DNA of 64,000 nt from Candidatus Latescibacterota bacterium (GCA_965221775.1 CBDCSU010000005.1:608001-672000), one strand, 5' to 3'; counted from the first letter of the stretch, positions 24,231-61,997 are shown. The notes: generated from the sequence alone by a model not told the origin. Program-made: numbers and translations.

Positions 24231-25362
24231 CGAGCCAGCCCTCCGTGCGGAAGTGCCCGCGGCGGCGGCCCTCCCAGCCGAGGCGGGCGATGATCTTGCG
24301 GTCCGCCCGCGGCATGGGGTAGCCGTCGAGGCCGCCCGGCGAGACCCAGGCCCAGTCGGCGCAGCCGATGGCCCGCACCCGGCCGCCGAGGCAGCGGGCG
24401 GCGAAGGCGTGGAGCCGGATCGAGCGGTGCGAGTAGTCGTGATCGACCACCGCCAGCGGGCGCTCCACCTCGATGTCGACGTCCAGCTCCTCCCGGACCT
24501 CGCGGCGCAGGCAGGCGGGCAGGCTCTCCCCCGGTTCCTGCTTGCCGCCGGGGAACTCCCACATCCCCGCGAGCATGCCCCCGGGCGGACGCTGCGCCAG
24601 CAGCAGCCGGTTGCCGCGGCGGATCAGTCCCGCCGCCACCTCCAGGTGGGGCCGGGGCCGGCGTTCCGGCCGCAGCGGCAGCACCGACGGGTCGTCCAGC
24701 TCGGCGCGGGCGCGGCAGTGGTCGGCCCACGGGCAGTCGCCGCAGCGCGGGCTCGACGGGGTGCAGACGCGGGCGCCGAGCTCCATCAGGGCCTGGTTGA
24801 ACTCCCCCGGGCGGGACCTCGGCATGAGGGCCTCACCGGCGGCGATGAGCCGCGCCCGCGTCTCGGCCCGCCGCGGGTCCTCCTCGACCCGCAGCAGCCG
24901 GCAGAGGAGGCGGGTCACGTTGCCGTCGAGGACGGGATGGGGCCGGTCGAAGGCGATGGAGCTGACCGCCGCCGCCGTGTACGGCCCGACGCCGGGCAGG
25001 TCGAGGAGGCCGTCGTAGGTATCGGGCAGCCGGCCTCCGTGCTCGCCGGCGACGGCGCGCGCGGCCCGGTGCAGGTTGCGGGCCCGGGAGTAGTAGCCCA
25101 TCCCCTCCCACGCCTTGAGGACCTCGCCCTCGTCGGCGGCGGCCAGGGCCTCGACCGTCGGGAAGGCCGCCAGGAAGCGCTCGTAGTAGCCGCGCGCCGT
25201 CTCCACCCGGGTCTGCTGCAGCATCACCTCCGAGACCCAGACCCGGTAGGGGTCCGCCGTGCGGCGCCAAGGCAGGTCGCGGCGGTGACGGCGGTACCAG
25301 GCCAGCAGCCGGCGCCGCAGGCCGGCGCGCCAGCGGGCATCCGCGAGGCGGTCCTCCGTCAC
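24223..25362 (-). CDS. mutY: A/G-specific adenine glycosylase with C-terminal Nudix domain (alternative in-frame start at 25443)
   Basis: WVSEVMLQQT; GYYSRARNL; LPGVGPYTA; CxxxxxxCxxCxxxxxC; WEFPGGK..REVREE. Confidence 0.95.
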   Translation of the reverse strand: MTEDRLADARWRAGLRRRLLAWYRRHRRDLPWRRTADPYRVWVSEVMLQQTRVETARGYYERFLAAFPTVEALAAADEGEVLKAWEGMGYYSRARNLHRAARAVAGEHGGRLPDTYDGLLDLPGVGPYTAAAVSSIAFDRPHPVLDGNVTRLLCRLLRVEEDPRRAETRARLIAAGEALMPRSRPGEFNQALMELGARVCTPSSPRCGDCPWADHCRARAELDDPSVLPLRPERRPRPHLEVAAGLIRRGNRLLLAQRPPGGMLAGMWEFPGGKQEPGESLPACLRREVREELDVDIEVERPLAVVDHDYSHRSIRLHAFAARCLGGRVRAIGCADWAWVSPGGLDGYPMPRADRKIIARLGWEGRRRGHFRTEGWLGG

Positions 25363-25439
25363 CGGACCTCCGCTCCCAGCCGATCCGCCGGCAGCGGCGG
25401 GGTACCGTCCGGGGCGGGCATCTTCCAGCCGGTCCGGCG

Positions 25440-26447
25440 TCACCGGTCCGCTCCCAGGCGACCGGCGGGCAGGGGCGGGGAGCCGTCGAGGCCGGCTTGG
25501 CCGCTGGCCGCCACCACGGCGTTGAGGACCGCCTCCTCGCAGATCTCGGCGGCGGCGGCGAAGAGCTCGGGCAGCCCGCTCTCGGCGGTGGCGGAGGCGC
25601 GCACCGTTCCCGGACCGGCGGGCGTGTCGTCGCGCAGCGCCGTGGTGGACAGGGCGAGGATGGTGCCGCCGGAGGTGCGCTCGTCGAGCAGACCCACCCG
25701 CACGAGGCCGAAGGAGGCCCGCCGGGCCAGGCGGTCGAGCTGAACCGGCAGCAGGGGGGCGTCGGTGACGATCACGGCGGCGAAGGTGCGGCGCCTCTGC
25801 GGCGCCAGGGGGGGCAGCCCAAGCCGCGGGCCGACGCGCTCGCCGTCGACGGTCAGGCCCCCGGGCTCGCCGCCGTTGGCGGCCAGCAGGACGCCCACCA
25901 CCGCGCCGGGCAGCCGCCGCGAGGCGGTACCGACGCCGGCCCGCGCCCCGAAGGCGGCCAGGCCGCGGCCGACGCCGGACTGGCCCTCGGCGGGCGGTTC
26001 TCCGGTGGCGGCGGCCAGGGCGGCGGCCACTGTGTCCTGCGTCAGGGCGGCGTGCAGTGACGCCGCCGGGGCCGGCACGCCGTCCACGGCGATCAGACCG
26101 GGCGGCCAGCCGGCGTCCTCGGGCAGGCCGGCGTCGAGCTGGAAGCCGTAGGCCAGCAGGCCGTCGTAGATCCTTCCGGCGGCCTGGGGCGGCGCCAGCA
26201 CCAGCGGCGTGGAGAGGGCGCCGAAGTCCTCGGTCATGGCCAGCCCGCCGGTCAGCTCGTCGCCGCCGTCGAGGGACCAGCGGCCGGCGAAGAACCGGCG
26301 GGGCGCCCCGGCGAAGGGGACCAGCGCCGTCACCCCGCTCCCGCCTCCCGCCGCGTGCCCCACGTGCACCCCGGCCACGTCGGTGACGGCGTTGGCGGCG
26401 CCCGGCTCCAGGCGGCCCACGGCGAGGCCGAGATCGCGCAGCCTCAT
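25440..26447 (-). CDS. DmpA/P1 (S58) peptidase-like protein, divergent paralog
   Basis: RLRDLG; NAVTDVAGVHVGH; GVGTASR; TDAPLLP; EEAVLNA. Confidence 0.8.
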   Translation of the reverse strand: MRLRDLGLAVGRLEPGAANAVTDVAGVHVGHAAGGGSGVTALVPFAGAPRRFFAGRWSLDGGDELTGGLAMTEDFGALSTPLVLAPPQAAGRIYDGLLAYGFQLDAGLPEDAGWPPGLIAVDGVPAPAASLHAALTQDTVAAALAAATGEPPAEGQSGVGRGLAAFGARAGVGTASRRLPGAVVGVLLAANGGEPGGLTVDGERVGPRLGLPPLAPQRRRTFAAVIVTDAPLLPVQLDRLARRASFGLVRVGLLDERTSGGTILALSTTALRDDTPAGPGTVRASATAESGLPELFAAAAEICEEAVLNAVVAASGQAGLDGSPPLPAGRLGADR

Positions 26448-30913: not shown

Positions 30914-31122
30914 GCCGGTCTCCTGGAGGTCGGTGGGACGAGGCTGGGTGGGTGACGCTCGAAGCGGGATAGGGTAGCCGTGGTGCGGGGTGGGCGCAAC
31001 GGGGGTGAGAACGAGCACTTGCCGCTCGCCGCAATGCGCAATTCTCCATCCACCGCTATCTTTTCCTGCGCCTGCCTCCCCTCCCGCCGCGACGCGACCC
31101 GCATCCCAGCTGAGCCTATGAC

Positions 31123-32577
31123 ATGAGTTACGTCTGGACGCCGATCGAAGACTACGAGTCGCACGATGCTCTTGCCCACAGGGAGCTCGGCGCTCTGGCC
31201 GAGGTTTGGCGTGAACGGCGCGAACAACTGACCACGCAGCAGGAGTACCGTGACTTCGAGGGCCGACTGAAACGGGAGTGGGCCATCGAGACGGGCCTGA
31301 TCGAGCGTCTCTACACCCTCGACCGCGGCATCACTCAACTGCTCATCGAGCACGGCATACAGGCGGCGGTGATCCCCCACGGAAGCGTTGCGAACCCGGA
31401 AGCCACGGTGGCCATGATCGAGGATCACGAAGCGGCGGTGGAAGGTGTGTTCCAGTTCGTGAAAGACGAGCGATCCCTGTCCACAAGCTACATCAAGGAA
31501 CTCCACGCGCTGATGACGCGGCATCAGCAAACCGTGGAAGGCGTCGACTCCCATGGCAGAAGGACAGAGACCCCTCTCATCCGCGGCGATTACAAGCGGC
31601 TGCCGAACAATCCCAGTCGGCCGGACGGCTCGGTCCATGAGTATTGCCCACCCGAGCAGGTCACTGCCGAGATGGACCGGCTCATCGCCATGCACGAGAC
31701 CCACGCCGGCGCCGCTCCCGAGGTGGAGGCCGCCTGGCTGCACCACCGTTTCACCCAGATACATCCCTTCCAGGACGGCAACGGACGCATTGCCCGCGCC
31801 ATCGCGACGCTGGTATTCATCAAGGGAGGTTGGTTCCCTCTCGTAGTCAGGGACCGGGAACGGGCCCGCTACATCGAAGCGCTGGAACAGGCCGATGGCG
31901 GCGACCTGAAACCACTCGTGGACTACTTCGCGCGCCTGCAGAAGGACGAGTTCGTCCGGGCCCTCAGCATTGCCGAAGACGTTCAAAGGTCCCGCCGGGC
32001 CGAGGACGCGATCAAGTCCGTGCGGCAGCGGTTGCAGGCCCGCAAAGACGCGCTCGTCGCCGAGTGGGAGACGGCGAAGGCCGTCGCCGCCGAGCTGAGA
32101 GACCTCTCACAAGGCCGCCTCAAGGAGGTCTCTGACGAGTTGCGCAGCGAGATGGGCGACGTGCTGGAGCACGGCTCCTACTTCGCCGATGGCGCGGCCG
32201 AGGGTGGGGACAGGAGCCACTATTGCCGCTACCAGATCATCCAGACCGCAAGGCAGCTCGACTACTTCGCAAACACCCACACATACCGTTCGTGGGCACG
32301 CCTTGTGATGAGAAACGACAATCAGACGGAAATGTTGATCGCCTTCCACGGAATCGGCCATGAGTTCCAAGGGGTTCTCGCGTGCTCGGCGACCTGGTTC
32401 CAGCGTGTGGAGACAGAGGAAGGCGAGAGGGAAATCGGCCCGGTGACGCCCGTGACGGACGACGTATTCCAGATCAACTACAAGGAGCCTCGCGAGGATG
32501 TGGAGGTCAGGTTCCGGAACTGGCTGGAGGAGGCCATCGTCCGTGGTCTGGGCCTGTGGCAGGAGACCTCCCTGTGA
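31123..32577 (+). CDS. Fic family protein (AMPylase) with C-terminal extension
   Basis: HPFQDGNGRIAR motif; TGLIE inhibitory-helix-like motif. Confidence 0.92.
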   Translation: MSYVWTPIEDYESHDALAHRELGALAEVWRERREQLTTQQEYRDFEGRLKREWAIETGLIERLYTLDRGITQLLIEHGIQAAVIPHGSVANPEATVAMIEDHEAAVEGVFQFVKDERSLSTSYIKELHALMTRHQQTVEGVDSHGRRTETPLIRGDYKRLPNNPSRPDGSVHEYCPPEQVTAEMDRLIAMHETHAGAAPEVEAAWLHHRFTQIHPFQDGNGRIARAIATLVFIKGGWFPLVVRDRERARYIEALEQADGGDLKPLVDYFARLQKDEFVRALSIAEDVQRSRRAEDAIKSVRQRLQARKDALVAEWETAKAVAAELRDLSQGRLKEVSDELRSEMGDVLEHGSYFADGAAEGGDRSHYCRYQIIQTARQLDYFANTHTYRSWARLVMRNDNQTEMLIAFHGIGHEFQGVLACSATWFQRVETEEGEREIGPVTPVTDDVFQINYKEPREDVEVRFRNWLEEAIVRGLGLWQETSL

Positions 32578-32659
32578 GGCGGTCGCCCCGTATCCTGCCG
32601 ACGATCATCTGCCCGCTGGTCTCGGGCTGAGCCCGCCACACCCCGTCCGCGGAGGTCCC

Positions 32660-33256
32660 TTGCGCATCGTCACCGGCAGCCTGCGCGGCCGCAGGATCCC
32701 CGTCAGCTCCGGCCGGCAGGGGGACATCGGCGTCACCCCGGGCCGGCTGAAGGAGGCCGTCTTCGCCAAGCTCGGGCCGTCCCTGGAGGGGATCGCCTTC
32801 CTCGACCTGTGCGCCGGCTCCGGGCAGATGGCCCTGGAAGCCTACAGCCGCGGCGCCCGGGTGACCGCGGTGGAGCCCGACCGCCGCCGGCGCGAGGCCC
32901 TGCGCCGGCTCATGGAGAGCTGGGGTGTCAACCACTTGGAGCTGCTCGGAGGCCGCGCCCAGACGGTGCTGAGGAAGCTGGCCGCCGAGGGCCGGCGTTT
33001 CGACGTCATCTACCTCGACCCGCCGTACCGGGCGCTGCACAACGGCCGTCCCCTGAGCCAGGTCCTGCTCGCCGCCGCCGGCCGCTCCGGGATCCTCGCC
33101 GAGGACGGCCTGCTGCTCGTGCAGCACCCGAAGGGCCTCGACCTGCCCGAGTCGCCGCAGGGGCTGCGCCGGGCCGACGCGCGCCGGCACGGGACCACCG
33201 GCCTGAGCGAGTACCGCCCCGCCCCCTTGACCACCTCCATGACGGGGCTATCCTAG
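32660..33256 (+). CDS. rsmD: RsmD-family 16S rRNA methyltransferase
   Basis: TTG after GGAGG; RIVTGSLRGR; LDLCAGSG; DPPY. Confidence 0.85.
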   Translation: MRIVTGSLRGRRIPVSSGRQGDIGVTPGRLKEAVFAKLGPSLEGIAFLDLCAGSGQMALEAYSRGARVTAVEPDRRRREALRRLMESWGVNHLELLGGRAQTVLRKLAAEGRRFDVIYLDPPYRALHNGRPLSQVLLAAAGRSGILAEDGLLLVQHPKGLDLPESPQGLRRADARRHGTTGLSEYRPAPLTTSMTGLS

Positions 33257-36585: not shown

Positions 36586-36636
36586 TACGGCAGGCTACCT
36601 CGACGGACTCACCGTCCTCCGATCTCGAGGAACGCC

Positions 36637-36968
36637 CTACGAGATCGCCAGGAACGCGGCTCCCGCCTCGGACCCGAAAACGAGCACCCCTGTCCGGTTG
36701 GACCGAAGCAACGCCTCGATGTCCGCCGTGGTGCAGTTGCCTCGGCGGATCCAGATGACCTTCGGAGGCGGCCCTCGAAGGAAGCTCACCTGGTGAAAGT
36801 CCGAGTCCTTCGAGACGATGGTGAGGTCATGCTCCTTGGCGTAGTCCCAGACCGCCGCGTCGCTCGCACGGGACAAGCCGACATCGCGGACGTGGACGGA
36901 GCCCGGGAACACGTCCGACAGACCGCCGACCAGGCGCGGGGACAGGTTCGCGTCGAAAGGAGCTTCAC
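36637..36968 (-). pseudogene. DUF5615 PIN-like toxin with a 1-nt deletion after codon 4
   Basis: GTG AAG CTC CTT then an out-of-frame TTC GAC GCG AAC (MKLL-FDANLSPRL); SKDSDF; PPKVIWIRRGN. Confidence 0.85.
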
Positions 36969-40876: not shown

Positions 40877-41290
40877 CTCGCTGCAGCCGCCAGAACACGC
40901 CTGAGCCCGGTGTCTGCCGCCGGCATGGGGTAGCCCATCGGCGCTGCATCCACCGCCGGCCCCCGGGCGGTCCTGTCGGCTGCGCCCATCCGCCAACGCC
41001 CGGCATCCGCCCGCTGCCCACCGCCGGCGTGGGGCGCCGTTTCGCTGCGGGCGCCAAGAACCGCCTGAACCCGGTGTCTACCGCCGGCCTGGGGGTAGCC
41101 CATCGGCACTGCATCCACCGCCGGCCCCCGGGCGGTCCTGTCGGCTGCGCCCATCCGCCAACGCCCGGTATCCGCCCGCTGCCCACGCCGGCATGGGGCG
41201 CCCCCTTCGCTGCGGGCGCCAGGAACCGCCTGAGCCCGGTGTCTACCGCCGGCATGGGGTAGCCCATCGGCGCTGCATCCACCGCCGGCC
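40877..41290. repeat. Intergenic tandem repeat, about 164-165 bp unit, about 2.5 copies
   Basis: CGCCTGA(G/A)CCCGGTGTCT recurs at 40898, 41062 and 41227, with near-identical following sequence. Confidence 0.92.
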
Positions 41291-41454: not shown

Positions 41455-43335
41455 ATGATCTCTCCCGCCCTGGCGCCCGATCCACCCCGGCTCCGACGGA
41501 TTCGCCTCTCCCTGTGCGTTCTCGCCGCCGCCGGGATCCTCGCGGCTCTTCCGGCCGGCGCGGAAACCCTGCACGAGGGCCTGCCCGAGGGGCCGGGTCT
41601 CCTGCTCGAGGACCGCGGCGGCCGTATCTACGCCGCTGTCCCCGGCCCGGCGGGCGTGGTCGCCCGGGGCGGCGACGACGGCGGCTGGGAGACCTTCGCC
41701 GAGGGCCGCCTGGGCGGCCTGCAGATCACCCCGGACGGCGACCTGTGGATCGCCCTCGGGGACGAGGTCCTGCGCTACCCGCGGGCCGGGGGCTCCCCGG
41801 TCTCCCGCACCCCGTCCTTCCGTCCGGAGGGGCCGCCTGGACCGCTGCTGGCCACCCGCTGGGGAGATGTCTGGTGTGTCGGGTGCGCCGACGTCCGCCG
41901 GGGCGACGCCATGTTCCAGGCCGCCCCCCTGGCCCCGCCGGGGTGGGAGATCACGCCGGTCTGCGACGATCCCTTCGGCAACGTCTGGGCCGTGGCCGCC
42001 GACGGCGAGCGGCTGGACCTGGCCGTGCTCACCGACCGGGGTCCCCATGCCTGGCAGCGCCTCGACCTGCCGGCGGACCTGCTCACCGGCCCCTGGAGCG
42101 GCGCGGCCGACGACGACGCCGGCTTCGTCTGGGCGGCGGCGGGGAACACCCTCGTGCGCGCCGACGCGCGCACCGCCGGCCACCGCTCCTTTGCCAGCCC
42201 CGTGGACGCCCCCATCACCGCCGTCGCCCGCGGCGGCGGCCAGCTGCTGGTGGGCTTCGGCGACGGCAGCCTGCGCGAGCTGCTGGTCAACGCCGACGAC
42301 CCGCCCGACTGGCGCGACGTCCTGCCGCCGGGCGAGGGCCCGGTGCGGGCCATCCTGCACGCCGGCTCCGGCGGTCTCTGGGTGCTGCGGGCAGGACAGG
42401 TACAGCGCTTCGCCGACCTCCAGCAGCCCTGGCACTCCCACTGGGAGGAGCTGCCCCTCATGCCGGCGGGCAACCACGACAACATCTTCGCCCGCATCGG
42501 CGACCGCCTCTACACCGCCGGCGGCAAGACCTTCTTCGGATGGCCCGCCGACGAGTGGGTCAACCTCGACCACGTCTGGTCCTACCACGTCCCCACCGGC
42601 ACCTGGCGCGTGGAGGCGCCCATGCTGGAGCCCGGCAAGGCCTACTCCGGCATCGCCGTCCTCGAGGACGAGCTGTGGCTGTTGGGGGGCCTCTTCCGCC
42701 ACGGCGAGGGCGACGCCACGAGGCCCACGGCGACGGTGGAGATCTTCGATCCGGCGACGCAGCGCTACCGCCTCGGCCCGCCCCTGCCGCAGAAAGCCGG
42801 ACAAGTGGTGGCTCTCAGCGCCGCGGGGCGGCTCTACGGCGTCGGCGGCGCCGCCGAGGAAGAGCACCTGGCGCAGCTCCTCAGCATCGGCCCCGGCGAA
42901 ACCGACTGGCGCGTCGACACCCCGCCCCCGGGTACCGTGTACCAGGCCAGCGGCTGCGTCCTCGACGACCGCCTCTACATCGCCGCGGGACCCAAGAGCC
43001 AGTGCCCGGGCCTGTTCATCTACGACCCCGGCCGGGACCGCTGGAGCGAGGTGGACCACCCGGTCAAGGCGCCGAACGCCCCCCTGTGCACGGCCTTCGA
43101 GAATCGCGTCTGGGTGCTGGGCGGGCAGGCCGACGGCGGCCGTACCGAGAGCTACGCCTACGACCCGGCCAGCGGCGACTGGACCCGCGGACCCGACCTG
43201 CCCCTGAGGCTGAGCTGGGCGGCGGCGGCCGACGCCGACGGCCGGCTGCTGGTGGCGGGCGGGGCGTTCTGGGACGACCGCGTCAACGACGTGCTCAACA
43301 CGGACCGGGTGTTCCTGATGCGGTCGGTCCCTTAG
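41455..43335 (+). CDS. Secreted double beta-propeller protein with C-terminal Kelch repeats
   Basis: Signal peptide; repeated LYxxGG / YDP..W Kelch motifs. Confidence 0.8.
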   Translation: MISPALAPDPPRLRRIRLSLCVLAAAGILAALPAGAETLHEGLPEGPGLLLEDRGGRIYAAVPGPAGVVARGGDDGGWETFAEGRLGGLQITPDGDLWIALGDEVLRYPRAGGSPVSRTPSFRPEGPPGPLLATRWGDVWCVGCADVRRGDAMFQAAPLAPPGWEITPVCDDPFGNVWAVAADGERLDLAVLTDRGPHAWQRLDLPADLLTGPWSGAADDDAGFVWAAAGNTLVRADARTAGHRSFASPVDAPITAVARGGGQLLVGFGDGSLRELLVNADDPPDWRDVLPPGEGPVRAILHAGSGGLWVLRAGQVQRFADLQQPWHSHWEELPLMPAGNHDNIFARIGDRLYTAGGKTFFGWPADEWVNLDHVWSYHVPTGTWRVEAPMLEPGKAYSGIAVLEDELWLLGGLFRHGEGDATRPTATVEIFDPATQRYRLGPPLPQKAGQVVALSAAGRLYGVGGAAEEEHLAQLLSIGPGETDWRVDTPPPGTVYQASGCVLDDRLYIAAGPKSQCPGLFIYDPGRDRWSEVDHPVKAPNAPLCTAFENRVWVLGGQADGGRTESYAYDPASGDWTRGPDLPLRLSWAAAADADGRLLVAGGAFWDDRVNDVLNTDRVFLMRSVP

Positions 43336-43342
43336 TCAGCCG

Positions 43343-44605
43343 TTACTCCCACAGGCGGGCCATCGGAACGGCGTACAGGCCATCTCCGAAGGGGACCGTG
43401 GTTTCTCCGTCGTACAGCACGACACCCTGGCGGAAACGGTCGCCCGCGGCGCCCCGCAGTTTCCGAAGCCCCTGGAAATCGCCGCGCCTGACGGTCGCCG
43501 ATGCCTTGACCTCGACGCCGGCGACGGCGTGCGAGCCCTGCTCCATCACGATGTCCACCTCCACTCCATCTCTGTCGCGGAAGTGGGAGAATTCGACGGG
43601 CACCTCCTGCCAGCTGGCCTGTCTCCGCAGTTCCTGGAAGACGAAGGTCTCGAGGAGTTGCCCCAGCAGGGAACGATCCGCCGCCAACTGCGCGGGACCG
43701 AGGTTGAGAAGCGCGGCGGAGAGACCCGTGTCTCCGAGGTGGAGCTTGGGGGTCTTGACCAGACGGCTCAGACGATTGCTGTGCCAGGGCGGGAGTCTCT
43801 CGAGAAGGAACAGGCTTTCGAGAAGCGTGACGTACTCCCCGATCGTAGGACGGCTGAGTTGGAACGGCGCGGCCAGGTCGGCGAGGTTGAAGAGCCGGGC
43901 CGTCTGCGAGGCGGCGGCGCGCAGGAGTGGCGGAAGGGTCTCGAGCGATCGGATGCGGGCCAGGTCGCGCACGTCGCGTTGAACCAGTGTCTCGACGTAG
44001 TCACGATACCAGTTGGCCTGTCGCCGAGGGGTGGGTCGCGCCAGCGCCGGCGGGAATCCGCCAGCGACGATGTGCTCTGCCAGTCGTGAACCGAGCCTCG
44101 GGACCTGAACGATCTTGAACCCTCCCTCGAACAGGTCGGATACGAACCCCCTGCTCGGATTCGATGCGGCCACGGAAGACCGCGACGCCAGTTCGTACCG
44201 TGACAGCGGATGGAGCCGGACGATCTGCAGCCGTCCGGCAAGGGACTCGGAGAGGGCCGGCAGGAGCAGAACGTTGGTGGAGCCGGCAAGGATGAATCGG
44301 CCGGGTACCCGGTTCCGGTCGACTTCGAGCTTCAGGGCCGGGAAGAGCTCCGGGACGAGCTGGATCTCGTCCAGGATGACGCGTGCCGGGAGATCGGCAA
44401 CGAACCCGGCGGGGTCCGCTCGGGCGCCGTCCCTCACGATGGCATCGTCGAAGCTGATGTATCCGTACTTCGGTGCATAGGCGTACTGGGCGAGTGTCGT
44501 CTTGCCGCACTGGCGCGGGCCGTGGATGAGTACGACCGGCGAGTCCTCCAGGGCCTCGGCGAGCCGGGGCTCGATGAGTCGCGGATAGAAGGTCTGTTCG
44601 GGCAT
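43343..44605 (-). CDS. AAA_14 ATPase with DUF4143 domain
   Basis: GPRQCGKTT; ILDEIQ; KTPKLHLGDTG; EVDIV..GVEVK. Confidence 0.92.
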   Translation of the reverse strand: MPEQTFYPRLIEPRLAEALEDSPVVLIHGPRQCGKTTLAQYAYAPKYGYISFDDAIVRDGARADPAGFVADLPARVILDEIQLVPELFPALKLEVDRNRVPGRFILAGSTNVLLLPALSESLAGRLQIVRLHPLSRYELASRSSVAASNPSRGFVSDLFEGGFKIVQVPRLGSRLAEHIVAGGFPPALARPTPRRQANWYRDYVETLVQRDVRDLARIRSLETLPPLLRAAASQTARLFNLADLAAPFQLSRPTIGEYVTLLESLFLLERLPPWHSNRLSRLVKTPKLHLGDTGLSAALLNLGPAQLAADRSLLGQLLETFVFQELRRQASWQEVPVEFSHFRDRDGVEVDIVMEQGSHAVAGVEVKASATVRRGDFQGLRKLRGAAGDRFRQGVVLYDGETTVPFGDGLYAVPMARLWE

Positions 44606-44714: not shown

Positions 44715-44770
44715 CAACAGCCTTGCGGACGGCTTGGATCGGCTAGGCGTGACATGCGAGAGGGGGCCTG

Positions 44771-45028
44771 TCGGCGACTGCCTCTACATGGCCGGCGGCA
44801 AGGCCCTTTCGCGTCTGGGTCCTGGGTGGACGCGCCGACGGTGGCGAGGGCTACGCCTACAACCCGGCCAGCGCCGAGACCCGGGGCCCGGACACGCCCC
44901 TGGAGCTGAGCTGGGCGGCGACGGCCGACGCCGACGACTGGCTGCTGGTGGCCGGCGGGGCGTTCTGGGACGACCGCGTCAACGACGTGCTCAACACGGA
45001 CCGGGTGTTTCTGATGAGGTCCCCGTAG
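44771..45028 (+). pseudogene. Remnant second copy of the Kelch gene 3' region
   Basis: Matches 42497-42535, then 43104-43335; 56-bp identity 44954-45009 = 43258-43313. Confidence 0.9.
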
Positions 45029-48643: not shown

Positions 48644-48669
48644 CTCCAACGGAAAGGAGTCCCTGGCCA

Positions 48670-50334: not shown

Positions 50335-51473
50335 AGATCACCCAGGTTGAGGCAATCCCCTTCGCCAGCTTCCTCTACGTCAGGATCGATACCGACGAGG
50401 GCGTGCACGGCATCGGCGAGGCCAGCCTCAGCGGCCGCAACCGGGCCGTGGCCGCCGCCTTCGATCACATCACCCCCCTGCTGATCGGCCAGGACGCCAC
50501 CCGGATCGAGTTCATCTGGCAGGACCTGTTCCGCGGCACCTTCTGGCGCGGCGGCCCGGTGCTGCAGTCGGCCCTGGCCGGCGTCGACCTGGCGCTGTGG
50601 GACCTCAACGGCAAGGCCCTCGGCGTGCCGGCGTACCGCCTCCTCGGCGGCCTCGCCCGCGACAAGGTCCTCCTCTACCGGCACGTCGGCGGCGCCACGC
50701 CGGAAGGGCTGGTCGAGAGCTCCCGGGCCCTGCTCGACGACGGCTGGAAGGTGCTGCGCATCTCGCCGATCGTCGCCGGCCGCGGCATCGACCACCGGGC
50801 GGACGTCGGTTTCGACCCGCGCCGCGCGATCCTCAACGGCGTCGCTCACATGACCGCCCTGCGCGAGGCCGTCGGGCCGGAGGTGGAGATCATCTTCGAG
50901 GTCCACACGCGGCTGTCGCCGGCGCGCGCCGTCGAGTTGTGCCGGCAACTGGAGGACCTGCGTCCGTTCTTCGTGGAGGACCCGATCCGCTCGGAGAACC
51001 CCGGCGCCTTCCGCACCCTGCGTGAGCACACCTCGGTACCGATCGGCACCGGCGAGCAGCTGCACGACAAGTGGGCCTACCGAGAGCTGATCGAGGGCGA
51101 GCTGATCGACTACCTGCGCGTCGACATCTGCCACACCGGCGGCATCACCGAGGGCCGCAAGCTGGCCCACATGGCCGAGGTCCACTACCAGGAGCTGGCC
51201 ACCCACTACACCTCGAGCCCGGTGAGCTCGGCGGCGATGCTGCACCTGAACCTGTCGATCGCCAACTGCGCCGTGCAGGAGTTCGCGCCGCCCTCGGCGG
51301 CCATGAACGAAGTGGTGGACCACGATCTGCGCGTCGAGGACGGGTACCTGCTGGCCTCGGACCGGCCGGGCCTGGGGATCGACCTGGACGTGGAGGCGGC
51401 CCGGCGGCTCGGCACCGACGATCACGAGCCGCCGCATCTGCGCCGGCCGGACGGGGCCGTGCAGGACTGGTAG
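50331..51473 (+). CDS. Galactonate dehydratase-like enolase-superfamily enzyme
   Basis: GTFWRGGPV; DLALWDLNGK; EVHTRL; EDP; TGEQ; RRPDGAVQDW. Confidence 0.88.
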   Translation: MKITQVEAIPFASFLYVRIDTDEGVHGIGEASLSGRNRAVAAAFDHITPLLIGQDATRIEFIWQDLFRGTFWRGGPVLQSALAGVDLALWDLNGKALGVPAYRLLGGLARDKVLLYRHVGGATPEGLVESSRALLDDGWKVLRISPIVAGRGIDHRADVGFDPRRAILNGVAHMTALREAVGPEVEIIFEVHTRLSPARAVELCRQLEDLRPFFVEDPIRSENPGAFRTLREHTSVPIGTGEQLHDKWAYRELIEGELIDYLRVDICHTGGITEGRKLAHMAEVHYQELATHYTSSPVSSAAMLHLNLSIANCAVQEFAPPSAAMNEVVDHDLRVEDGYLLASDRPGLGIDLDVEAARRLGTDDHEPPHLRRPDGAVQDW

Positions 51474-51489
51474 TGCTGGGCGGGCTCCC

Positions 51490-51582
51490 GGCGCTATGCG
51501 CGTCGATGCCGTCGGCGCCGGTCTGCGCGGCGGAGCGCAGGTAGCCGTCGGAGAGATCGCGCTGGCGGAGGAGGACCTTCAT
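51490..51582 (-). pseudogene. 5' remnant of a deleted gene (mannonate-dehydratase-like N-terminus)
   Basis: MKVLLRQRDLSDGYLRSAAQTGADGID, then runs into the convergent gene; family assignment from memory only. Confidence 0.45.
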
Positions 51583-51727
51583 CGACGGGAGCCTCCCGTG
51601 GCGCCCGGGGGCCGGCTACGCGGAGAAGCCGCGGAACCCCGCTGCGTAGCCGGCGAGCACGGCGTCGGAGAGCTCGCGCTGACGTCCGAGGACCCCCATC
51701 GGTGGGACCTTCCCAGGCGCGGGCGGG

Positions 51728-52534
51728 CTATGCGGAGAAACCGCGGAAGCCCGCGGCGTAGTTGGCGAGCACGGCGTCGGGGTCGTGATCGCTGCCGGGG
51801 GCGTGGATCACCTCCACGGAGAACCAGCCGTCGTAGCCCGCGGCCTCCAGCAGGCGCACCGGCGTTGCGTGATCGATGACGCCGTCGCCGAGGGCGCAGA
51901 CCTGCATGCGGCCGTCCACGTAGCGGCCGTCGTGGGCGTGGAGGTGGCGGGTCAGCGGGCCGAGCGTCCGGAAGGACTCCTCCGGCGTCTCCATCATGCG
52001 CTGGGTGTGCATCGCGTCCCACAGGACCTGCACGGCCGGGTGGTCCACGGCCTCGATGACGGCCCGCACCGGCGCCGAGCAGCACCAGTCGTCGTGGGTC
52101 TCCATCAGCACCGTGACCCCCGCCGCCCCGGCCTCGCCCGCCACCTGGCGGTAGCCCTCGGCGGTGTGCTCCACCGCGGCGGCCAGCTCCCCCGCGTGGC
52201 CCCGGGAGCCGCCGAAGGTGCGCAGGAGCCCGCAGCCGAGGTCGGTCGCCAGCTCGATGTAGCGGCGCACATCCTCCACGTGGCCCGCCCGCTCCGGCTC
52301 CGCCACGGCCATGCGCGCGCCGGTGGCGATGCAGCAGATCTCCAGCCCCTCGTCGGCGAAGCGGCGCCTCACCTCGGCGCGTTCCGCCTTGGACAGGCCG
52401 GCCTCGATGCCGCTGGCGTGGCCCCACTCGACTCGCGGCTCCAGGCCCTTGTACCCGTGCCGCTTCATGCCGGCCACGACCTCGTACAGGCGCCAGTCGG
52501 GGCAGACGCTGGTCATCGTCGCAAGGTCGGTCAT
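51728..52534 (-). CDS. Sugar phosphate isomerase/epimerase (AP endonuclease 2 TIM barrel)
   Basis: GYKGLEPR; METHD; WDAMH; HLHAHD; GWFSVE. Confidence 0.88.
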   Translation of the reverse strand: MTDLATMTSVCPDWRLYEVVAGMKRHGYKGLEPRVEWGHASGIEAGLSKAERAEVRRRFADEGLEICCIATGARMAVAEPERAGHVEDVRRYIELATDLGCGLLRTFGGSRGHAGELAAAVEHTAEGYRQVAGEAGAAGVTVLMETHDDWCCSAPVRAVIEAVDHPAVQVLWDAMHTQRMMETPEESFRTLGPLTRHLHAHDGRYVDGRMQVCALGDGVIDHATPVRLLEAAGYDGWFSVEVIHAPGSDHDPDAVLANYAAGFRGFSA

Positions 52535-52799
52535 CTGTCTCCTCTCAGTTGGGGTTCCGGGCGCGAGCATACGCGCCGTCGTTTCAGCGGGAGCAATCTA
52601 AGGAGCGGCGCGGATCGCCGGCTACGTGGCGCGCCGGGCGGGCGCCCCGGGCGGCTGGCGGGAACTCCCCTCAGGCATGGGCCAGGAGTTCGGCACCGCG
52701 CGGCCGCGGCCCCTGCGAGCCACGGCGGCACCTCCCTTCAGGCCGCAAAAGGAGGCTCCGTGCAGATCCGCGGCTCCGGCCCACCTCGGCGGAGCCCCT

Positions 52800-53516
52800 T
52801 CAGGCCTCGGCGAGAAGCCGGGCCCCGTGCTTGCCGCGGCCGACCACGGCGAGGCCGTCCACGGCTCTCAGGCAGTAGGTCATGCGCGCCGCCAGGGCGG
52901 GGCTCAGGCCCGCGGCCTCGGCCAGGGCCCGGTTGGTGAAGGGGCGGGGCAGTTCTGCGGCGGAAGGAAGCAGCGCCAGCAGGCGGGCCGGCGTCGACAG
53001 GTCGCAGCGGCGCACCACCTTCAGCAGGCGGCGGTCCGTGCGCCGCCACTCCGGGTGGCGCCAGGAGCCGCGGCCGTCGTGGCAGCGGACCTCCTCCTCC
53101 TGGATCAGCAGAACCTCCAAGGCGAAGCCGGGGCGCGCCGGCAGGTCGGGGATGCTCACCAGCTCGTGGAATACGTCTTCCAGGCGGCCGCGCTTCGGGG
53201 ACTTGCGCCGGCCCAGGCGCTCGCCCGCGGCGTCGACGCGCAGGATCCACTTCTCCGCGGCGATGGGGTGCACGAGGCGCACCCGCCGGCGCTCGGTGAG
53301 CCGGCGCAGCTTGGCCTTCAGGGGCGCAAAGCTGCGCGTCTGGATCTCCACCAGCAGGTTGTCGTCGCGCTCGATGTCGACGACGTAGCCTTCGACCCGG
53401 GTCTCCAGGCGGTCCTGGGGACGCGCGTACCAGGACTTGACCGCGGCGTGCAGGGAACGCTCTCGCAGGACGCCGATGTGCGGGGGTGCCGGCAATCCAC
53501 CTCCGGGACGGGACAA
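52800..53516 (-). CDS. Conserved hypothetical protein with PD-(D/E)xK-like motif
   Basis: ERSLHAAVK..YVVDI..LVEIQT; C-terminal HTH-like segment. Confidence 0.7.
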   Translation of the reverse strand: MSRPGGGLPAPPHIGVLRERSLHAAVKSWYARPQDRLETRVEGYVVDIERDDNLLVEIQTRSFAPLKAKLRRLTERRRVRLVHPIAAEKWILRVDAAGERLGRRKSPKRGRLEDVFHELVSIPDLPARPGFALEVLLIQEEEVRCHDGRGSWRHPEWRRTDRRLLKVVRRCDLSTPARLLALLPSAAELPRPFTNRALAEAAGLSPALAARMTYCLRAVDGLAVVGRGKHGARLLAEA

Positions 53517-56509: not shown

Positions 56510-57905
56510 CCACATCACAACTCTCGCCGCCTCCGGCGAGTCCGAGACCCTGGAGTTCAAGGAGACGACCGGCACCCGCCGGGAGGCGGCCATGACGGTG
56601 TGCGCCTTTCTGAACCAGCGTGGTGGTCAGGTGATGTTCGGCGTGACCCAGGATGGGACTGTGGCCGGGCAACAGGTCAGCGAGCGCACCATCGAAGAGT
56701 TGAGTGCTGAACTCCGGCGAATCGATCCCCCGGCGTTTCCGGCGGTGGAACGGGTCTCCGTGGACGGCGGTGGTGAAGTCATCATGGTCAACACCGGCCA
56801 AGGGGCATCAGGGCCGTACACGTACCGAGGCAAAGCCTACCGCCGGGTCGGGAACACCACACTCGCAATGGCGGCCCAAGAGTACAACCAAGTGCTCTTC
56901 GAGCGGATGCACAGTGAGCAACGCTGGGAGAACCAGCCGGCCGCAGGGTGGTCCATAGACGACCTCGACGAAGCGGAAATTCGGCGGACGGTCGCTGAGG
57001 CGGTCCGGCGCGGGCGTCTCGAAGAGCCTGTAGGCGGAGAGCCAACCGACATGCTGAGGGGCCTCGGCCTTCTGCGCGACGGCGCGCTGTTGCGGGCGGC
57101 GGCGGTGCTGTTCGGCAGCACGGAGCGGTTGGAGTTCGAGATGCCGCAGTGCCTGCTCCGGGTCGCCCGCTTCCGGGGACTCGACCGGATGGAGTTCCTG
57201 GACAACCGCCAATTCAACGGCAACGCTTTCGCGCTTCTCGTCAACGCCGAGCGCTTCCTGCGCGACACCCTGCCCATAGCCGGCAGGTTCGAGCAGGACC
57301 GCTTCGAGCGAATCGACGAGCCCCTGTATCCGCCTCTGGCCACGCGCGAGGCGCTGGCAAACGCCCTGTGCCATCGCGACTACTCCATCGGCGGCGGCTC
57401 CGTTGGCGTAGCGGTCTACGACGACCGCCTGGAGGTGACATCCTCCGGTTCCCTGCACTTCGGCCTGACGCCGGAGAAGCTGTTCGCCCCGCACGAATCG
57501 CGGCCATGGAATCCGCTGATCGCCCGCACCTTCTACCGGCGCGGGATCATCGAGGAGTGGGGAAGCGGGACCCTGAAGATGGCGGAGATGGCCAGCAGCG
57601 CCGGCCTTCCGGTGCTGGAGATAGACGATGACGGGGGAGCCGTCACCGTGCGATTCCGACATAGCCTGTTTGTGCGCCAGCCAGAGGGCAGCGAGGTCAG
57701 TCCTGCCAAGAGGCGGGAGATGATACTTGCCCTGCTGGATGACGCGGCAGAGGGCTTGACGCGCCGCGAGATTCATGCACGTCTGCGTCCCGGGGTGAGC
57801 GAACGTCAGGTGCGAACGACGCTGGAGGAGTTGAGAGACGGGGGACTGGTCACGTCCAAGGCTCGCGGACCGTTGACGCGATGGTGCGCGATAGGTGCGA
57901 GATAG
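56499..57905 (+). CDS. Schlafen/AlbA_2 + HATPase-like + HTH protein
   Basis: GESETLEFKE; CAFLN..GG..FGV; REALANALCHRDY; NPLIA; GSGT; C-terminal wHTH. Confidence 0.9.
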   Translation: MNIDHITTLAASGESETLEFKETTGTRREAAMTVCAFLNQRGGQVMFGVTQDGTVAGQQVSERTIEELSAELRRIDPPAFPAVERVSVDGGGEVIMVNTGQGASGPYTYRGKAYRRVGNTTLAMAAQEYNQVLFERMHSEQRWENQPAAGWSIDDLDEAEIRRTVAEAVRRGRLEEPVGGEPTDMLRGLGLLRDGALLRAAAVLFGSTERLEFEMPQCLLRVARFRGLDRMEFLDNRQFNGNAFALLVNAERFLRDTLPIAGRFEQDRFERIDEPLYPPLATREALANALCHRDYSIGGGSVGVAVYDDRLEVTSSGSLHFGLTPEKLFAPHESRPWNPLIARTFYRRGIIEEWGSGTLKMAEMASSAGLPVLEIDDDGGAVTVRFRHSLFVRQPEGSEVSPAKRREMILALLDDAAEGLTRREIHARLRPGVSERQVRTTLEELRDGGLVTSKARGPLTRWCAIGAR

Positions 57906-57953
57906 GTGCGCGATGGTGCGTGATAGGTGCGAGATAGGTGCGCGATGAGAGCG
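57879..57953. repeat. 10/11-bp tandem repeat (NGAT[A]GGTGCG)
   Basis: cgatggtgcg cgataggtgcg agataggtgcg repeated twice; degenerate TATAGGGGGC units continue to about 58086. Confidence 0.85.
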
Positions 57954-58230
57954 CCACAGGGGCGGGAAATTGGCGCTATCAAGCAGTACTCAGGGGGCGC
58001 GATAGGGACGACGGGAGCCAATAGGGCGCTATGAATGGTGCATAAGTCCCCCTGGGGGCCTATAGGGGGCTTATAGGGGGCCTATGCTGCACGATACCTG
58101 CGCGATGGGGGGCGAGACAGGGTCAAGCCATGATTGACCTGAGGATCACCGAAGCCGGTTCCGTCCAGTCCCGGAAGTCCGTGTTGCGCCAGCACCAGCC
58201 CGAAGAGCTAATCCCCAGGAGCAAGCCACA

Positions 58231-59319: not shown

Positions 59320-59323
59320 CCTG

Positions 59324-60364
59324 ATGCGGACCTGCGTCCTTGCGGCCATGGTCCTGCTCCTGCCCTTGCCGGTCTGCCATGCAGCCGCGAATCCGGCAAG
59401 CGATCCGGACGGAGAGCCGCAGGCCCAGGTGATCCTGGAGGCCGGCGCCATCGACAGCACCACCGTGGTGGTGGGGGCCGCGGCCGTGGTCGTCTATGGC
59501 CTCGGGTACCGCGATCCGGTCTCGGGGAAGTGGCCCCGCCTGGCCGGGTTGGCCGGGGTCGTGAAGGCGGTGGACGAGCATCGGCTGCTGCTGGCGCTCG
59601 AGGAACAACGGTGGCCTCAGCGCATCGATCTGGAGCGCGTTCAGAGGCTGATCCTGCTGGGTCCCGCTGCCGCGGGATCGTCGCAGGGAGGCGGCACTCC
59701 CCCCGGAGGCGCTGTCGACATCAACAAGGTGGCCAGGGGCAAGACCCCTCCTTACCCGCAACGGGAGGACAGCCATGACCGAATCGGACTCAGGAGACTT
59801 GTCGACACCTTGATCATGGGTGATCTGCCCAACCCCCAGGTCGCACCCACGGAGACCACCGAGTTGGACACCGTACACTCACTTGAAGGAGCTGTACTGC
59901 AGGGCGGGTCTCAACTTGAGAGAAACGACCGGATCTCCCGAAAACTCTCCACGAGCGCGCTTCTGTCCACCGGGTTCCTCTACGGAGGGTTCAAGCTCCT
60001 GGTACACTCGTGCGGCGGCGATGGCGACGATCCCGACGATCTGGGCACTGCCTTCTGTGTACTGGAGGGATGGCCTCTGCTTGCGGTCTCGGGCAGCCTC
60101 ATCGCGGTCCCCATGGGCGTGACGGTATGGGATCCCTACGACAACCCCGGCGCCGTATGGCTGGGCAGCCTCACCGGTCTCCTGGGAGGAGCCGCGTTCT
60201 CCCTCGGTCTCAAGACCTTGTTCCCCGTTGTCCTCGGTCCCCCCATCATGGCTACCATGATGTCCGAGTGGTCGCGCAGTCATCCGGGGACACGCGGCCT
60301 CTCCATCGGCCTGGTGCCGAACCGACGCGGGGGGTTGTCAGCCGTGGCGTCGTTGCGTTTCTGA
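59324..60364 (+). CDS. Secreted/membrane hypothetical protein ending in Phe
   Basis: Signal peptide; Gly-rich hydrophobic C-terminal half; ends SLRF. Confidence 0.65.
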   Translation: MRTCVLAAMVLLLPLPVCHAAANPASDPDGEPQAQVILEAGAIDSTTVVVGAAAVVVYGLGYRDPVSGKWPRLAGLAGVVKAVDEHRLLLALEEQRWPQRIDLERVQRLILLGPAAAGSSQGGGTPPGGAVDINKVARGKTPPYPQREDSHDRIGLRRLVDTLIMGDLPNPQVAPTETTELDTVHSLEGAVLQGGSQLERNDRISRKLSTSALLSTGFLYGGFKLLVHSCGGDGDDPDDLGTAFCVLEGWPLLAVSGSLIAVPMGVTVWDPYDNPGAVWLGSLTGLLGGAAFSLGLKTLFPVVLGPPIMATMMSEWSRSHPGTRGLSIGLVPNRRGGLSAVASLRF

Positions 60365-60379: not shown

Positions 60380-61147
60380 ATGCACCTGTTCCGGTCTCTT
60401 TCCGTGGGGGCGCTTCTCTCCGCCGGATGCGCGGCGCCCCTGACCGAGGTAGCGGCCACCCGTGAGAGCGGGATCGGGCAGGATCTGTTTGAAGAGGGTG
60501 AACAGGTGTGGATCACCTATCAGGGAATAGGGATTGAGAAGACAGGGAGAGGGATCGTTCTCGAATCGGACGAGGATTCGGTCAGGCTCGATCTGGGGCG
60601 ATCGGGTATCCGCGATATCCGCTACCGATCGATACGAACCGTGCGGCGCCCGGCCGGAGACCGCTGGTACGCGGGCGTATCAACCGTCGCCTTTCCGGTG
60701 CTCGTCGGCCGACCGCAGGAATTGCCCTCCATGATTCGCTTGACAGGTGCGGGAGTATCGATCAGGCGCAGGACCCACCAGAATGGAGTGGAGGCGAATC
60801 TCACGATGGGCGGAAGAGGCGAGGGTGGGTATTCCTCGTGGATTGGCCTGGCGGGGAATGCCCACTTCTTCACCATCCTGCCCAGGTCCTACGTTGTCCT
60901 GGGGACGGGGAGGATCTGGCCCCGCCCCATGGAAGCCTTCAATCTCTACCACAACTACCGCTCCGGCGGGTCCTTGACCTATGTCCGCATCGGCTTTGGA
61001 GTAGCGGGCCCGGTCCTGAAGGGGTGGGAGTTGCGCCTGGAGGTCGAATCAAAGGGCATGCAAGCCATCTTGTCGGGGTCGGAGGCCACGGGCCTGGAAC
61101 CCGAACTGTTCGGGGCAACCCTGGGCATGGAATCCGTGCTGCGGTAG
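60380..61147 (+). CDS. Putative lipoprotein with beta-strand-rich C-terminus
   Basis: LSAGC lipobox; RBS AGGA. Confidence 0.6.
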   Translation: MHLFRSLSVGALLSAGCAAPLTEVAATRESGIGQDLFEEGEQVWITYQGIGIEKTGRGIVLESDEDSVRLDLGRSGIRDIRYRSIRTVRRPAGDRWYAGVSTVAFPVLVGRPQELPSMIRLTGAGVSIRRRTHQNGVEANLTMGGRGEGGYSSWIGLAGNAHFFTILPRSYVVLGTGRIWPRPMEAFNLYHNYRSGGSLTYVRIGFGVAGPVLKGWELRLEVESKGMQAILSGSEATGLEPELFGATLGMESVLR

Positions 61148-61160
61148 GACAAGTTCCCTG

Positions 61161-61997
61161 ATGCGGACCTACCTCGACCAACTCCAGCGGATCCTCGACC
61201 ACGGCGTGGAGAAGCGGGACCGCACCGGCGTGGGCACGCTCTCCCTCTTCGGCATGCAGGCGCGCTACGCCATGGACGACGGCTTTCCCGCGGTCACCAC
61301 CAAGAGGCTGGTGTGGAAGTCGATGCTCTCGGAGCTGCTGTGGTTCGTCTCGGGGTCGGACAACATCAACGACCTGAAGGCGATCTACCCGCACAACAAG
61401 CTCTGGGACGCCAACTACGAGGACTATCTCTCGCGCCTCGGGGTGGAGGAGAACGACGGCGCCATGGGGCGCATCTACGGCGTGCAGTGGCGCCGCTGGC
61501 GGGGGGTGGACCGCACCGTCGATCAGCTCCAGGAGGCCGTCGACCTGCTGCGCACGGACCCCGGCTCGCGGCGGATCATGGTCGATGCCTGGAACGCCGC
61601 CGAGACCGGGCCCGCCGACGTGGCCCTGCCGCCGTGCCACAACTTCTTCCAGCTCTACACCGCCGGCGACCGGCTCTCCCTGCAGATGTACCAGCGCTCC
61701 TGCGACATGTTCCTCGGCGTGCCCCTCAACATCGCCTCGTACTCCCTGCTGCTGCACATGGTGGCGCGGATCACCGGATTCGTGCCCCACGAGTTCATCC
61801 ACACCCTCGGCGACTGCCACATCTACCTGAACCACCTCGACGCCGTGAAAAAGCAGCTCCGCCGCGAGCCCCTGCCGCTGCCGCGCCTTCGCATCCGCGA
61901 CCGCGGCCAGCGCGAGATCGACGACTTCGTCTTCGACGACTTCGAGATGGAAGGCTACCGCAGCCACCCCGCCATCCGCGCCGACATGGCCGTCTGA
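61161..61997 (+). CDS. thyA: Thymidylate synthase
   Basis: DRTGVGT; ELLWF; YGVQWR; ALPPCH; YQRSCDMFLGVPLNIASY. Confidence 0.97.
   Translation: MRTYLDQLQRILDHGVEKRDRTGVGTLSLFGMQARYAMDDGFPAVTTKRLVWKSMLSELLWFVSGSDNINDLKAIYPHNKLWDANYEDYLSRLGVEENDGAMGRIYGVQWRRWRGVDRTVDQLQEAVDLLRTDPGSRRIMVDAWNAAETGPADVALPPCHNFFQLYTAGDRLSLQMYQRSCDMFLGVPLNIASYSLLLHMVARITGFVPHEFIHTLGDCHIYLNHLDAVKKQLRREPLPLPRLRIRDRGQREIDDFVFDDFEMEGYRSHPAIRADMAV

Follow-up and report, generated by a model that had tools for sequence, protein, structure and literature searches.

What leaves a second copy of a gene's end or start lying beside the intact gene? The question is raised by a 64,000-nucleotide (nt) stretch of the genome of a Candidatus Latescibacterota bacterium (GCA_965221775.1, hereafter G000), which we call the window (G000:C5:608001-672000; positions are counted from its first nt). 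A first-pass annotation had listed seven sites in the window at which a duplicate gene terminus, here called an echo, accompanies the intact gene. It attributed them to repeated integrase-free import of DNA from relatives, joined by offset microhomology and surviving only across gene boundaries, or possibly to a dedicated, undescribed insertion mechanism. We arrived at a different answer: the echoes probably arose by duplication in place, passed through a selection filter, and then decayed neutrally. G000 is a metagenome-assembled genome (MAG) of 5.36 Mb in 6 contigs (70% GC; estimated completeness 96.8%, contamination 7.75%), and its sequence is present in sponge and marine metagenome runs. 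Tandem duplications were detected with Tandem Repeats Finder (TRF), pair identities were taken from BLAST and domains from Pfam; evidence from other runs is at the level of contigs (four runs, X2 and X19 among them).

Each claimed pair was scored by local alignment against a null of 2000 segment pairs of equal spacing taken from the window itself. Three sites stood clearly apart: site 1 (25333-25417 vs 25414-25495; score 73, matched or exceeded by 0 of 2000 nulls), site 3 (43104-43341 vs 44809-45034; score 293, 0 of 2000) and site 4 (51546-51668 vs 51663-51780; score 121, 1 of 2000). The score of 20 at site 2 was reached by 30 of 2000 nulls, which is marginal for a pair chosen by eye. Site 5 consists of three units of ~62-70 nt with a mean column identity of 71% in a hand-fitted alignment; its three pairwise comparisons were reached by 70, 177 and 15 of 2000 nulls, TRF at a score of at least 30 did not report it, and positions 52630-52799 are missing from the related genome G004. 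The two remaining sites were exact repeats. The window contains 45 maximal exact direct repeats of at least 16 nt and 199 of at least 14 nt (Markov-2 simulations: 5.3 and 55.6), and ~30 of the 45 are unconnected with known repeats or gene ends. Because such repeats are frequent in the window and mostly unrelated to gene ends, the exact 16-mer and 14-mer are background. Thus, of the seven duplicated termini, three are solid, two are weak and two do not rise above the local repeat level.

Four close relatives were available for comparison: G004, the closest (~94-95% nucleotide identity to G000), G002 and G007 (~91-93% to G000 and ~95% to each other) and G006 (~88-90%). Site 1 is an 81-nt tandem duplication comprising ~51 nt of a peptidase gene end, the GTGA stop/start overlap and ~27 nt of the start of a MutY-like gene (Table 1). 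The copies are 77.6% identical over 85 nt (BLAST; TRF period 78, 1.9 copies). The unit is doubled in G000 and G004 and single in G002, G006 and G007, where the locus is 76-81 nt shorter. In the resident unit, the peptidase part shows 1 difference in 51 nt from the single copies in G007 and G002. As a result of the duplication, two candidate GTG starts of MutY lie exactly 81 nt apart, and since the unit amounts to 27 codons, MutY can start at either. Site 4 is a ~117-nt tandem duplication (TRF period 112, 2.1 copies) with the same distribution, double in G000 and G004 and single in the other three genomes. Its two units together make a 27-codon chimeric start-plus-end mini-open reading frame (mini-ORF). 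A decayed stub of the gene lost at this site, diverged by ~25%, is kept in all five genomes and is shorter in G002, G006 and G007 (both by eye).

Site 3 has a different architecture, with the two copies of a Kelch-repeat gene end separated by an insert of ~1.4 kb that carries one gene, an ATPase with AAA_14 and DUF4143 domains; GC content is lower here (0.67-0.69 across 43-45 kb). The copies are 84.9% identical over 238 nt (BLAST). From the longer echo in G007 and a joint between 44734 and 43027 in an X2 contig, the left edge of the duplicated target lies at ~43027-43035 and the right edge at ~43323, giving ~290-300 nt within an overall range of 240-300 nt. G006 provides the empty site: it has no ATPase match, and its single Kelch end runs straight into the downstream flank. 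In G000 that flank comes after the echo, which is therefore the displaced native end of the gene. Over ~220 nt, the resident copy and the echo are similarly close to the G006 sequence (0.895 and 0.868). The ATPase insert is common to G000, G002, G004 and G007, and past the end of homology all occupied genomes have the same few codons and stop, supplied by the insert (by eye). The echoes carry different lesions: that of G007 has lost 1 nt and is truncated at its 3' side, and that of G002 has an in-frame TAG and is down to ~90 nt (by eye). In a fifth MAG (L161) an outer-membrane beta-barrel gene occupies the Kelch end, with a 47-nt echo; G002 has a further, nested insert of 1.7 kb, with 40 nt of the ATPase gene end duplicated at its flank, and G004 has ~950 nt of other DNA between the Kelch and ATPase genes.

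Table 1. Genes, duplicated units and weaker repeats at the sites considered in the window
Feature	Position	Strand	Description
MutY-like glycosylase gene	24223..25443	-	Pfam HhH-GPD, NUDIX_4 and FeS; candidate GTG starts at 25443 and 25362
Site 1 echo unit	25333..25417	-	Second peptidase end, GTGA and MutY start; one 3-nt indel
Site 1 resident unit	25414..25495	-	Peptidase end, GTGA, first ~27 nt of MutY
S58 peptidase gene	25440..26447	-	Peptidase_S58, E 6.7e-52; last ~51 nt and GTGA lie in the resident unit
Site 2	36609..36657	-	~22-nt imperfect repeat at stop of DUF5615 gene; near chance level
Kelch-repeat gene	41455..43335	+	Insertion target; Pfam Kelch_1/Kelch_6; five related MAGs have orthologues (85-90% protein identity)
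Site 3 resident copy	43104..43341 (BLAST limits)	+	Duplicated target
AAA_14 + DUF4143 ATPase gene	43343..44605	-	Inserted cargo; Pfam E 5.3e-46 and 2.6e-23
Site 3 echo	44753..45028	+	276-nt displaced native Kelch 3' end; decaying; 5' part rearranged in G000
Exact 16-mer	48646..48661	+	Over ribosome-binding site; repeated at 50311-50326; background level
N-terminal remnant of deleted gene	51474..51582	-	Runs into convergent enolase-family gene (by eye)
Site 4 second unit	51546..51668	-	Gene-end echo (15 codons and stop), spacer, second copy of lost gene's start
Site 4 first unit	51663..51780	-	Real gene end, spacer with ribosome-binding site, 12 codons of lost downstream gene's start
Xylose-isomerase-like TIM-barrel gene	51728..52534	-	AP_endonuc_2, E 7.8e-36; last 15 codons are the resident part
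Site 5	52662..52860	-	End of gene 52800-53495 and two weak upstream-like copies, each with TGA followed by a purine-rich run
Exact 14-mer	59320..59333	+	At start codon; repeated at 61157-61170; background level

A chunked self-BLAST of G000 returned 320 clusters of local direct repeats (spacing 40-4000 nt, length 40-450 nt), of which 120 lay inside one gene, 74 between two genes and 126 involved a gene terminus or intergenic sequence. Manual addition of site 1 brought the junction repeats to 127, comprising 20 in dispersed families and 107 local pairs. Among two-copy tandem duplications inside genes, the period was divisible by 3 in 29 of 29 cases; at junctions (n = 36) the remainders 0/1/2 were distributed 13/11/12. 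The proposal that such events survive only where they fall across gene boundaries was thus borne out in the form of a frame filter. Copy identity ranged continuously from 100% down to 66%, as expected if copies begin identical, and identical or near-identical pairs occur (100%, 100% and 97%). About 40 spaced pairs resemble site 3 in having a gene end, one to five genes and an echo, a class in which empty sites would be needed to establish the share of true insertions. Junction-type two-copy repeats numbered 7, 9 and 5 in 400-kb segments of G000, and 5, 3 and 8 per 400 kb in G007, G017 and G026, respectively. G000 is therefore not unusual, a similar density having been named by the first-pass annotation itself as grounds for abandoning its explanation. 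Four of the 107 local pairs, together with site 5, fall in the 64 kb of the window, where ~1.3 would be expected; this local excess is mild and fits an indel-rich segment.

The nature of the differences between copies bears on whether the echoes evolved as coding DNA in another lineage, as had been suggested from an apparent excess of synonymous differences. At sites 1, 3 and 4, 21 of 39 differences fell at codon position 3, a mild bias only (positions 1/2/3: 1/3/6, 7/5/11 and 1/1/4, respectively). Genome-wide, 46 resident/echo pairs with one copy in a long gene and the other outside gave 172/149/245 mismatches over 1495/1492/1499 sites, 43% of them at position 3, with per-site divergences of 0.115/0.100/0.163; many indels were of 1-2 nt, and most had lengths not divisible by 3. 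True orthologues of G000 versus G007, G006 and G002 showed 61% at position 3; for G007 the counts were 460/376/1302 (0.048/0.039/0.136 per site). Divergence at positions 1 and 2 was thus 2-2.5 times higher in echo pairs than in orthologues, and this large position-independent component fits a pair of one constrained and one neutral copy. By our own estimate, a simple sum of rates for such a pair would put ~40-45% of differences at position 3.

Polarisation with outgroups placed the changes on individual copies. At site 3 the echo branch carried 6/3/3 changes and the resident branch 1/2/7; that is, the coding-like changes sit on the resident copy, not on the echo. Seven tandem sites gave 17/10/24 on the echo branch and 8/6/11 on the resident branch (L184 was left out and L183 polarised with two outgroups only, owing to complex patterns in relatives). 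Site 1 had been selected for its synonymous look, so unselected sites provide the fair test; the five tandem sites outside the window, without sites 1 and 4, gave 15/9/15 on the echo branch. Together with the genome-wide share of 43% versus 61%, this lends no support, site 1 excepted, to the view that the echoes evolved as coding DNA elsewhere.

These observations suggest a simple sequence of events. Short tandem duplications of 60-330 nt would form by slippage or by joining at microhomology of a few bases. BLAST alignments of the tandem copies extend 0-15 nt beyond one period (4-6 nt at sites 1 and 4), and by eye the unit edges share words of 6 nt at site 4 and C6:1154965 and of 8 nt at C6:505848, in old, diverged copies that blur the edges. 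Where a unit spans a gene junction, the upstream gene would keep its end, the downstream gene would keep its start, and the fused start-end middle would be useless. In other cases, foreign DNA would insert with a long target duplication, such as the ~290 nt of Kelch 3' end around the 1.4-kb ATPase gene; the copy adjoining the Kelch gene body would stay in use, and the displaced native end would be left downstream. Selection would purge events inside genes unless the reading frame was kept, and survivors would therefore pile up at gene boundaries. Finally, the unused copy would decay neutrally and the used copy would change mostly synonymously, which may explain the mild position-3 excess. For the molecular step itself, the candidates are slippage, Ku/LigD end-joining and fill-in of staggered breaks. 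G000 encodes Ku, and end-joining is therefore available, with nothing that ties Ku to these events. The Ku domain match (C5:826801-827343; L173) lies in an open frame of 1128 amino acids, which may be a fusion with ligase/polymerase domains or merely a long open frame in high-GC DNA.

Several observations weigh against duplication in place as the origin of every echo. At site 1 the polarised echo branch is 2/1/8 in the peptidase frame, with 8 of 11 changes at position 3. The copies at sites 1, 4 and C6:505848 are 20-22% apart, with G000 and G004 the only genomes in which the duplication is seen; in aligned intergenic DNA, G000 and G007 have diverged by 10.8%. An in-place origin would therefore have to be about as old as the separation of G000 and G004 from G002/G007, with loss in the latter, and this divergence is at the upper limit of what it allows. 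The resident copy at C6:1154965/1155032 matches the type found in G007, G002 and G006, and the echo is of the type that forms the sole gene end of G004, each type being single in the relatives. At C6:505848 the gene-end echo resembles the G006 type (5 mismatches in 40 nt, no indel) more than the resident type (9 in 26 nt and an indel; by eye). The last two patterns fit an in-place origin only with old duplications and different copies lost per lineage. In addition, genes were called with a purpose-made codon-score caller, making starts and 'intergenic' labels approximate, and two of the three control genomes for frequency had lower GC contents, 0.59 (G017) and 0.55 (G026), with poor gene calls in the latter (gene coverage 0.76).

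Much of this would be accommodated if DNA were imported with an offset join, using homology on one side and out-of-register microhomology on the other, which leaves donor and recipient termini side by side. The bias at site 1, the divergence at sites that G000 shares only with G004 and the allelic patterns at the two C6 loci can all be counted in its favour. So can the upstream region of a methyltransferase gene in G007, which holds in tandem two cassettes found singly in G000 and in G002/G006, each with a copy of the methyltransferase start; one of them, an insert of 3.1 kb, has Rieske and di-haem oxidoreductase genes and bears at its flank a 115-nt duplicate of that start (32642-32756). Against import stand the genome-wide position-3 share of 43%, not ~61%, the unbiased echo branches at site 3 and the five unselected tandem sites, and the pairs at 100%, 100% and 97% identity. 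Moreover, no donor-type tract was found beside the echoes at the Kelch 3' end (compared with G006), C6:505848 or C6:1154965: identity to G006 does not drop at the Kelch 3' end, the flanks of C6:505848 hold the species pattern up to the unit edge, and the G007-like stretch at C6:1154965 spans ~100 nt, about the unit itself. None of the copies examined carried derived states of a non-sister lineage in conflict with the species relationships, and every one of them also fits an echo that is a fossil of ancestral sequence. Given the lack of a donor-type flank and of conflict with species relationships, we regard import as an unlikely general source. Local import is a conceivable reading for site 1 and for a few sites in other parts of the genome. 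The first-pass annotation was right that the process is integrase-free and filtered at gene boundaries; import as its general source is what the codon positions and the lack of a donor tract speak against.

Particular donors were also considered and rejected. Distant congeners (G001, G003, G005, G009 and G016) were poor candidates for the site 1 echo, their peptidase ends being of another protein type than either copy (by eye). A recent exchange between G000 and G004 at site 1 was set aside, the low local divergence lying within normal patchiness. For the Kelch 3' end, sliding identity among G000, G002, G006 and G007 showed no step at the duplicated part that would point to a distant donor.

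The neutral decay that we favour for the unused copies would not apply if echoes were retained for a function, providing a ribosome-binding site, translational coupling or promoter context for the downstream gene. In each unit the stop/start junction is indeed complete (a GTGA at site 1; at site 4 a stop, a ribosome-binding site and an ATG), the 81-nt duplication at site 1 is in frame for MutY, and G000 and G004 differ at 1 position in ~165 nt of the site 1 units compared to 10 in ~116 nt of flank (by eye). However, G000-G004 divergence is normally patchy enough (0-18 mismatches per 100 nt) to include so low a count, both site 4 units are ~10% different between the same two genomes, above their coding flanks (by eye), echo branches are unbiased elsewhere, and the relatives do well with a single junction. 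Retention for function is accordingly improbable.

A dedicated, undescribed system that places cassettes at gene ends and duplicates the target by its own chemistry, the other proposal of the first-pass annotation, fares worse still, and we consider it very unlikely. In its favour, the Kelch end has been hit repeatedly (by the ATPase gene in G000, G002, G004 and G007, by the beta-barrel gene in L161 and by the nested insert in G002), and the same short sequence follows the new Kelch stop in all occupied genomes (by eye). This shared junction sequence can be explained by one founding insertion followed by cargo turnover. A nuclease-like nature has also been proposed for DUF4143. On the other side, the duplications vary in length from 40 to ~300 nt, and different sites carry unrelated cargo: across 38 spaced sites, the 59 proteins are mostly ordinary enzymes and transporters with some toxin-antitoxin or defence-type genes, and include metabolic enzymes, serpin, LRR and ankyrin proteins. 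Transposase-type domains occur in 2 of the 38. In agreement with the claim that the window lacks transposases and integrases, Pfam recognised no recombinase family among its 58 called proteins, the sole hint being a sub-threshold DDE_Tnp_1_2 match in the Fic protein (E 4e-4, 21 bits, cut-off 29). Cargo-free tandem duplications show the same features as the spaced sites.

Nor does the ATPase behave as a self-mobile gene in general: only 2 of its 16 paralogues in G000 have flanking direct repeats, and one of these two lies among a dispersed repeat present in 9-13 copies. The paralogues of this AAA_14/DUF4143 family share 24-37% identity, and the family is large for a 5.4-Mb genome. The dispersed repeat, ~210-350 nt long, has its 9-13 copies 1-3.5 kb apart over ~80 kb (C6:1587098-1664214) and could be a cassette array; within it, the pair C6:1654181/1657224 (208 nt, 87.5%) flanks a second ATPase gene of this family and a 500-amino-acid gene with no Pfam match. 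A perfect 56-nt pair at C6:759449/760929 was tried as a young insertion with an empty site and rejected, as its AbiE-type cargo is present in all four relatives and the flanks differ.

An assembly artefact, in which contigs of two strains were joined with unmerged overlapping ends, would suit a metagenome-assembled genome with this estimated contamination and a copy divergence of 10-25%, like that between strains or species, and is nevertheless hardly credible, since G004, a separate assembly ~5% diverged, has both copies at sites 1, 4 and C6:505848, G002 and G007 share the site 3 insert and echo, contigs of two other runs bridge site 4 with both copies (X2 record 32, 50742-52630; X19 record 24, 51535-52630, with just 11 nt left of the first copy), and false joins would mostly hit gene interiors and break frames, which is not seen. 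Contigs of the best-matching run break inside the site 3 repeat (43284-43287 and 44980-44983), which fits a true repeat and is no proof alone.

Duplication in place followed by decay places the sites among known kinds of event. In Furuta et al. (2010, Nucleic Acids Res 38:2428; PMC2853133), insertion with long target duplication is described as a small insert lacking mobile-element genes, between direct repeats of more than 30 bp that match a single sequence at the empty site. The repeats are tens to hundreds of bp long, often span a translation start or stop and are mostly nearly identical; the mechanism is given as unknown, with double-strand breakage suggested, and the cases were collected for restriction-modification genes (PMC2853133). 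Site 3 fits this class. Its insert is absent from the same locus in G006, its 238-nt repeats both align with the single G006 sequence, and the insert is shorter than 20 kb (~1.4 kb), with one gene and no integrase or transposase. Unlike the published cases, the cargo is an AAA_14/DUF4143 ATPase with no methyltransferase or restriction domain (Pfam); restriction-modification cargo was a criterion of the published screen, not a feature of the mechanism. The repeats also differ from those described there in being 85-90% identical, which makes the event an old one, and elsewhere in G000 the cargo of spaced sites consists mostly of ordinary metabolic and transport genes. For this class, Furuta et al. 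cite Nobusato et al. 2000 (Gene 259:99).

The tandem sites fit ordinary duplications. Tandem duplications by microhomology or slippage are known spontaneous events in bacteria and are easily lost again between the repeats. Sites 1 and 4 resemble them in being head-to-tail, without spacer and single in relatives, with units of 60-330 nt genome-wide and in-gene cases only in frame; a few bases may also be shared at the unit edges, which are blurred in these diverged copies (by eye). What is particular here is that the surviving units straddle stop/start junctions and make start-plus-end chimeric mini-ORFs. Site 3 also recalls the prophage e14 and phage 21 at icd of Escherichia coli, which supply a substitute gene end and displace a pseudo-end downstream by means of an integrase and a fixed attachment core. 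The Kelch gene is likewise kept intact by a second, slightly different 3' end, with the displaced end downstream; in contrast to these elements, the cargo is a single gene without a tyrosine or serine recombinase (Pfam), and both Kelch copies are equally close to the relatives. Homology-facilitated illegitimate recombination in natural transformation, reportedly described by de Vries and Wackernagel 2002 with one homologous anchor and one microhomology joint, is similar in being integrase-free and able to add foreign DNA beside a conserved gene. Its predicted donor tract and initial coding-type divergence were, however, not found in general.

The setting of the sites is uneven. Positions 1-22 kb of the window encode core functions (Nqr, biotin synthesis and pyruvate dehydrogenase). 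The part from 24 to 62 kb is accessory-like, with five PhyH dioxygenases, two S58 peptidases, enolase-family enzymes, Fic, a DUF433/DUF5615 pair, a Schlafen-type ATPase and others (Pfam), and is an indel mosaic relative to the four relatives. A hypervariable slot (31004-32642) lies upstream of the RsmD-like methyltransferase gene mentioned above: it holds a Fic gene in G000, ~3 kb of other DNA in G002 and ~13.7 kb in G006. In G007 (L037 15308-18701) both the Fic region and the Rieske/di-haem cassette are present, and behind each of the two stands a copy of the opening ~97 nt of the methyltransferase gene. G007 also has a 3.6-kb insert at 48654-48667, where the ribosome-binding site of gene 48670-50334 lies. 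The flanks of this insert overlap by 14 nt, and a 297-nt stretch within it matches the start region of the enolase-family gene (50475-50772) at 90% identity.

Further repeats in the window lie apart from the seven sites. A 165-nt unit repeated 2.5 times (40878-41290, 92% matches; TRF), overlooked by the first-pass annotation, sits between a PhyH gene and the Kelch gene, in their divergent promoter region; seemingly about one copy is present in G004 and G006, and short-read contigs break there, so that the copy number in G000 comes from the assembly only. In the gap that separates the Schlafen-type ATPase gene from the next gene, 57877-57947 consists of a 32-nt unit repeated 2.2 times, itself an 11-nt unit repeated 6.5 times, and a second 11-nt unit is repeated 2.9 times at 58054-58085. 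Outside the window, at C6:1154965-1155104, the only version that G004 has of the gene's last 20 codons (L199) is the type that lies unused downstream of the stop in G000, which may represent replacement of a gene end through its duplicate.

For the reading of such genomes, these results call for caution: where a diverged second gene end stands next to an intact gene, ordinary duplication followed by selection is expected to have left it there, and it is no evidence for a new import mechanism. The Kelch-end locus, whose cargo differs among lineages and which lies in a genome that encodes Ku, could help to choose among end-joining, fill-in of staggered breaks and one-sided homologous recombination. 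More tentatively, the gap between a gene end and its echo might act as a neutral slot, a recombinase-free hot spot in which unrelated cargo is gained, nested and swapped, and gene termini might be renewed through the spare copy once it had diverged freely, with the old copy deleted. If some spare copies do come from relatives by one-sided homologous recombination, this would provide a route for stacking alleles.

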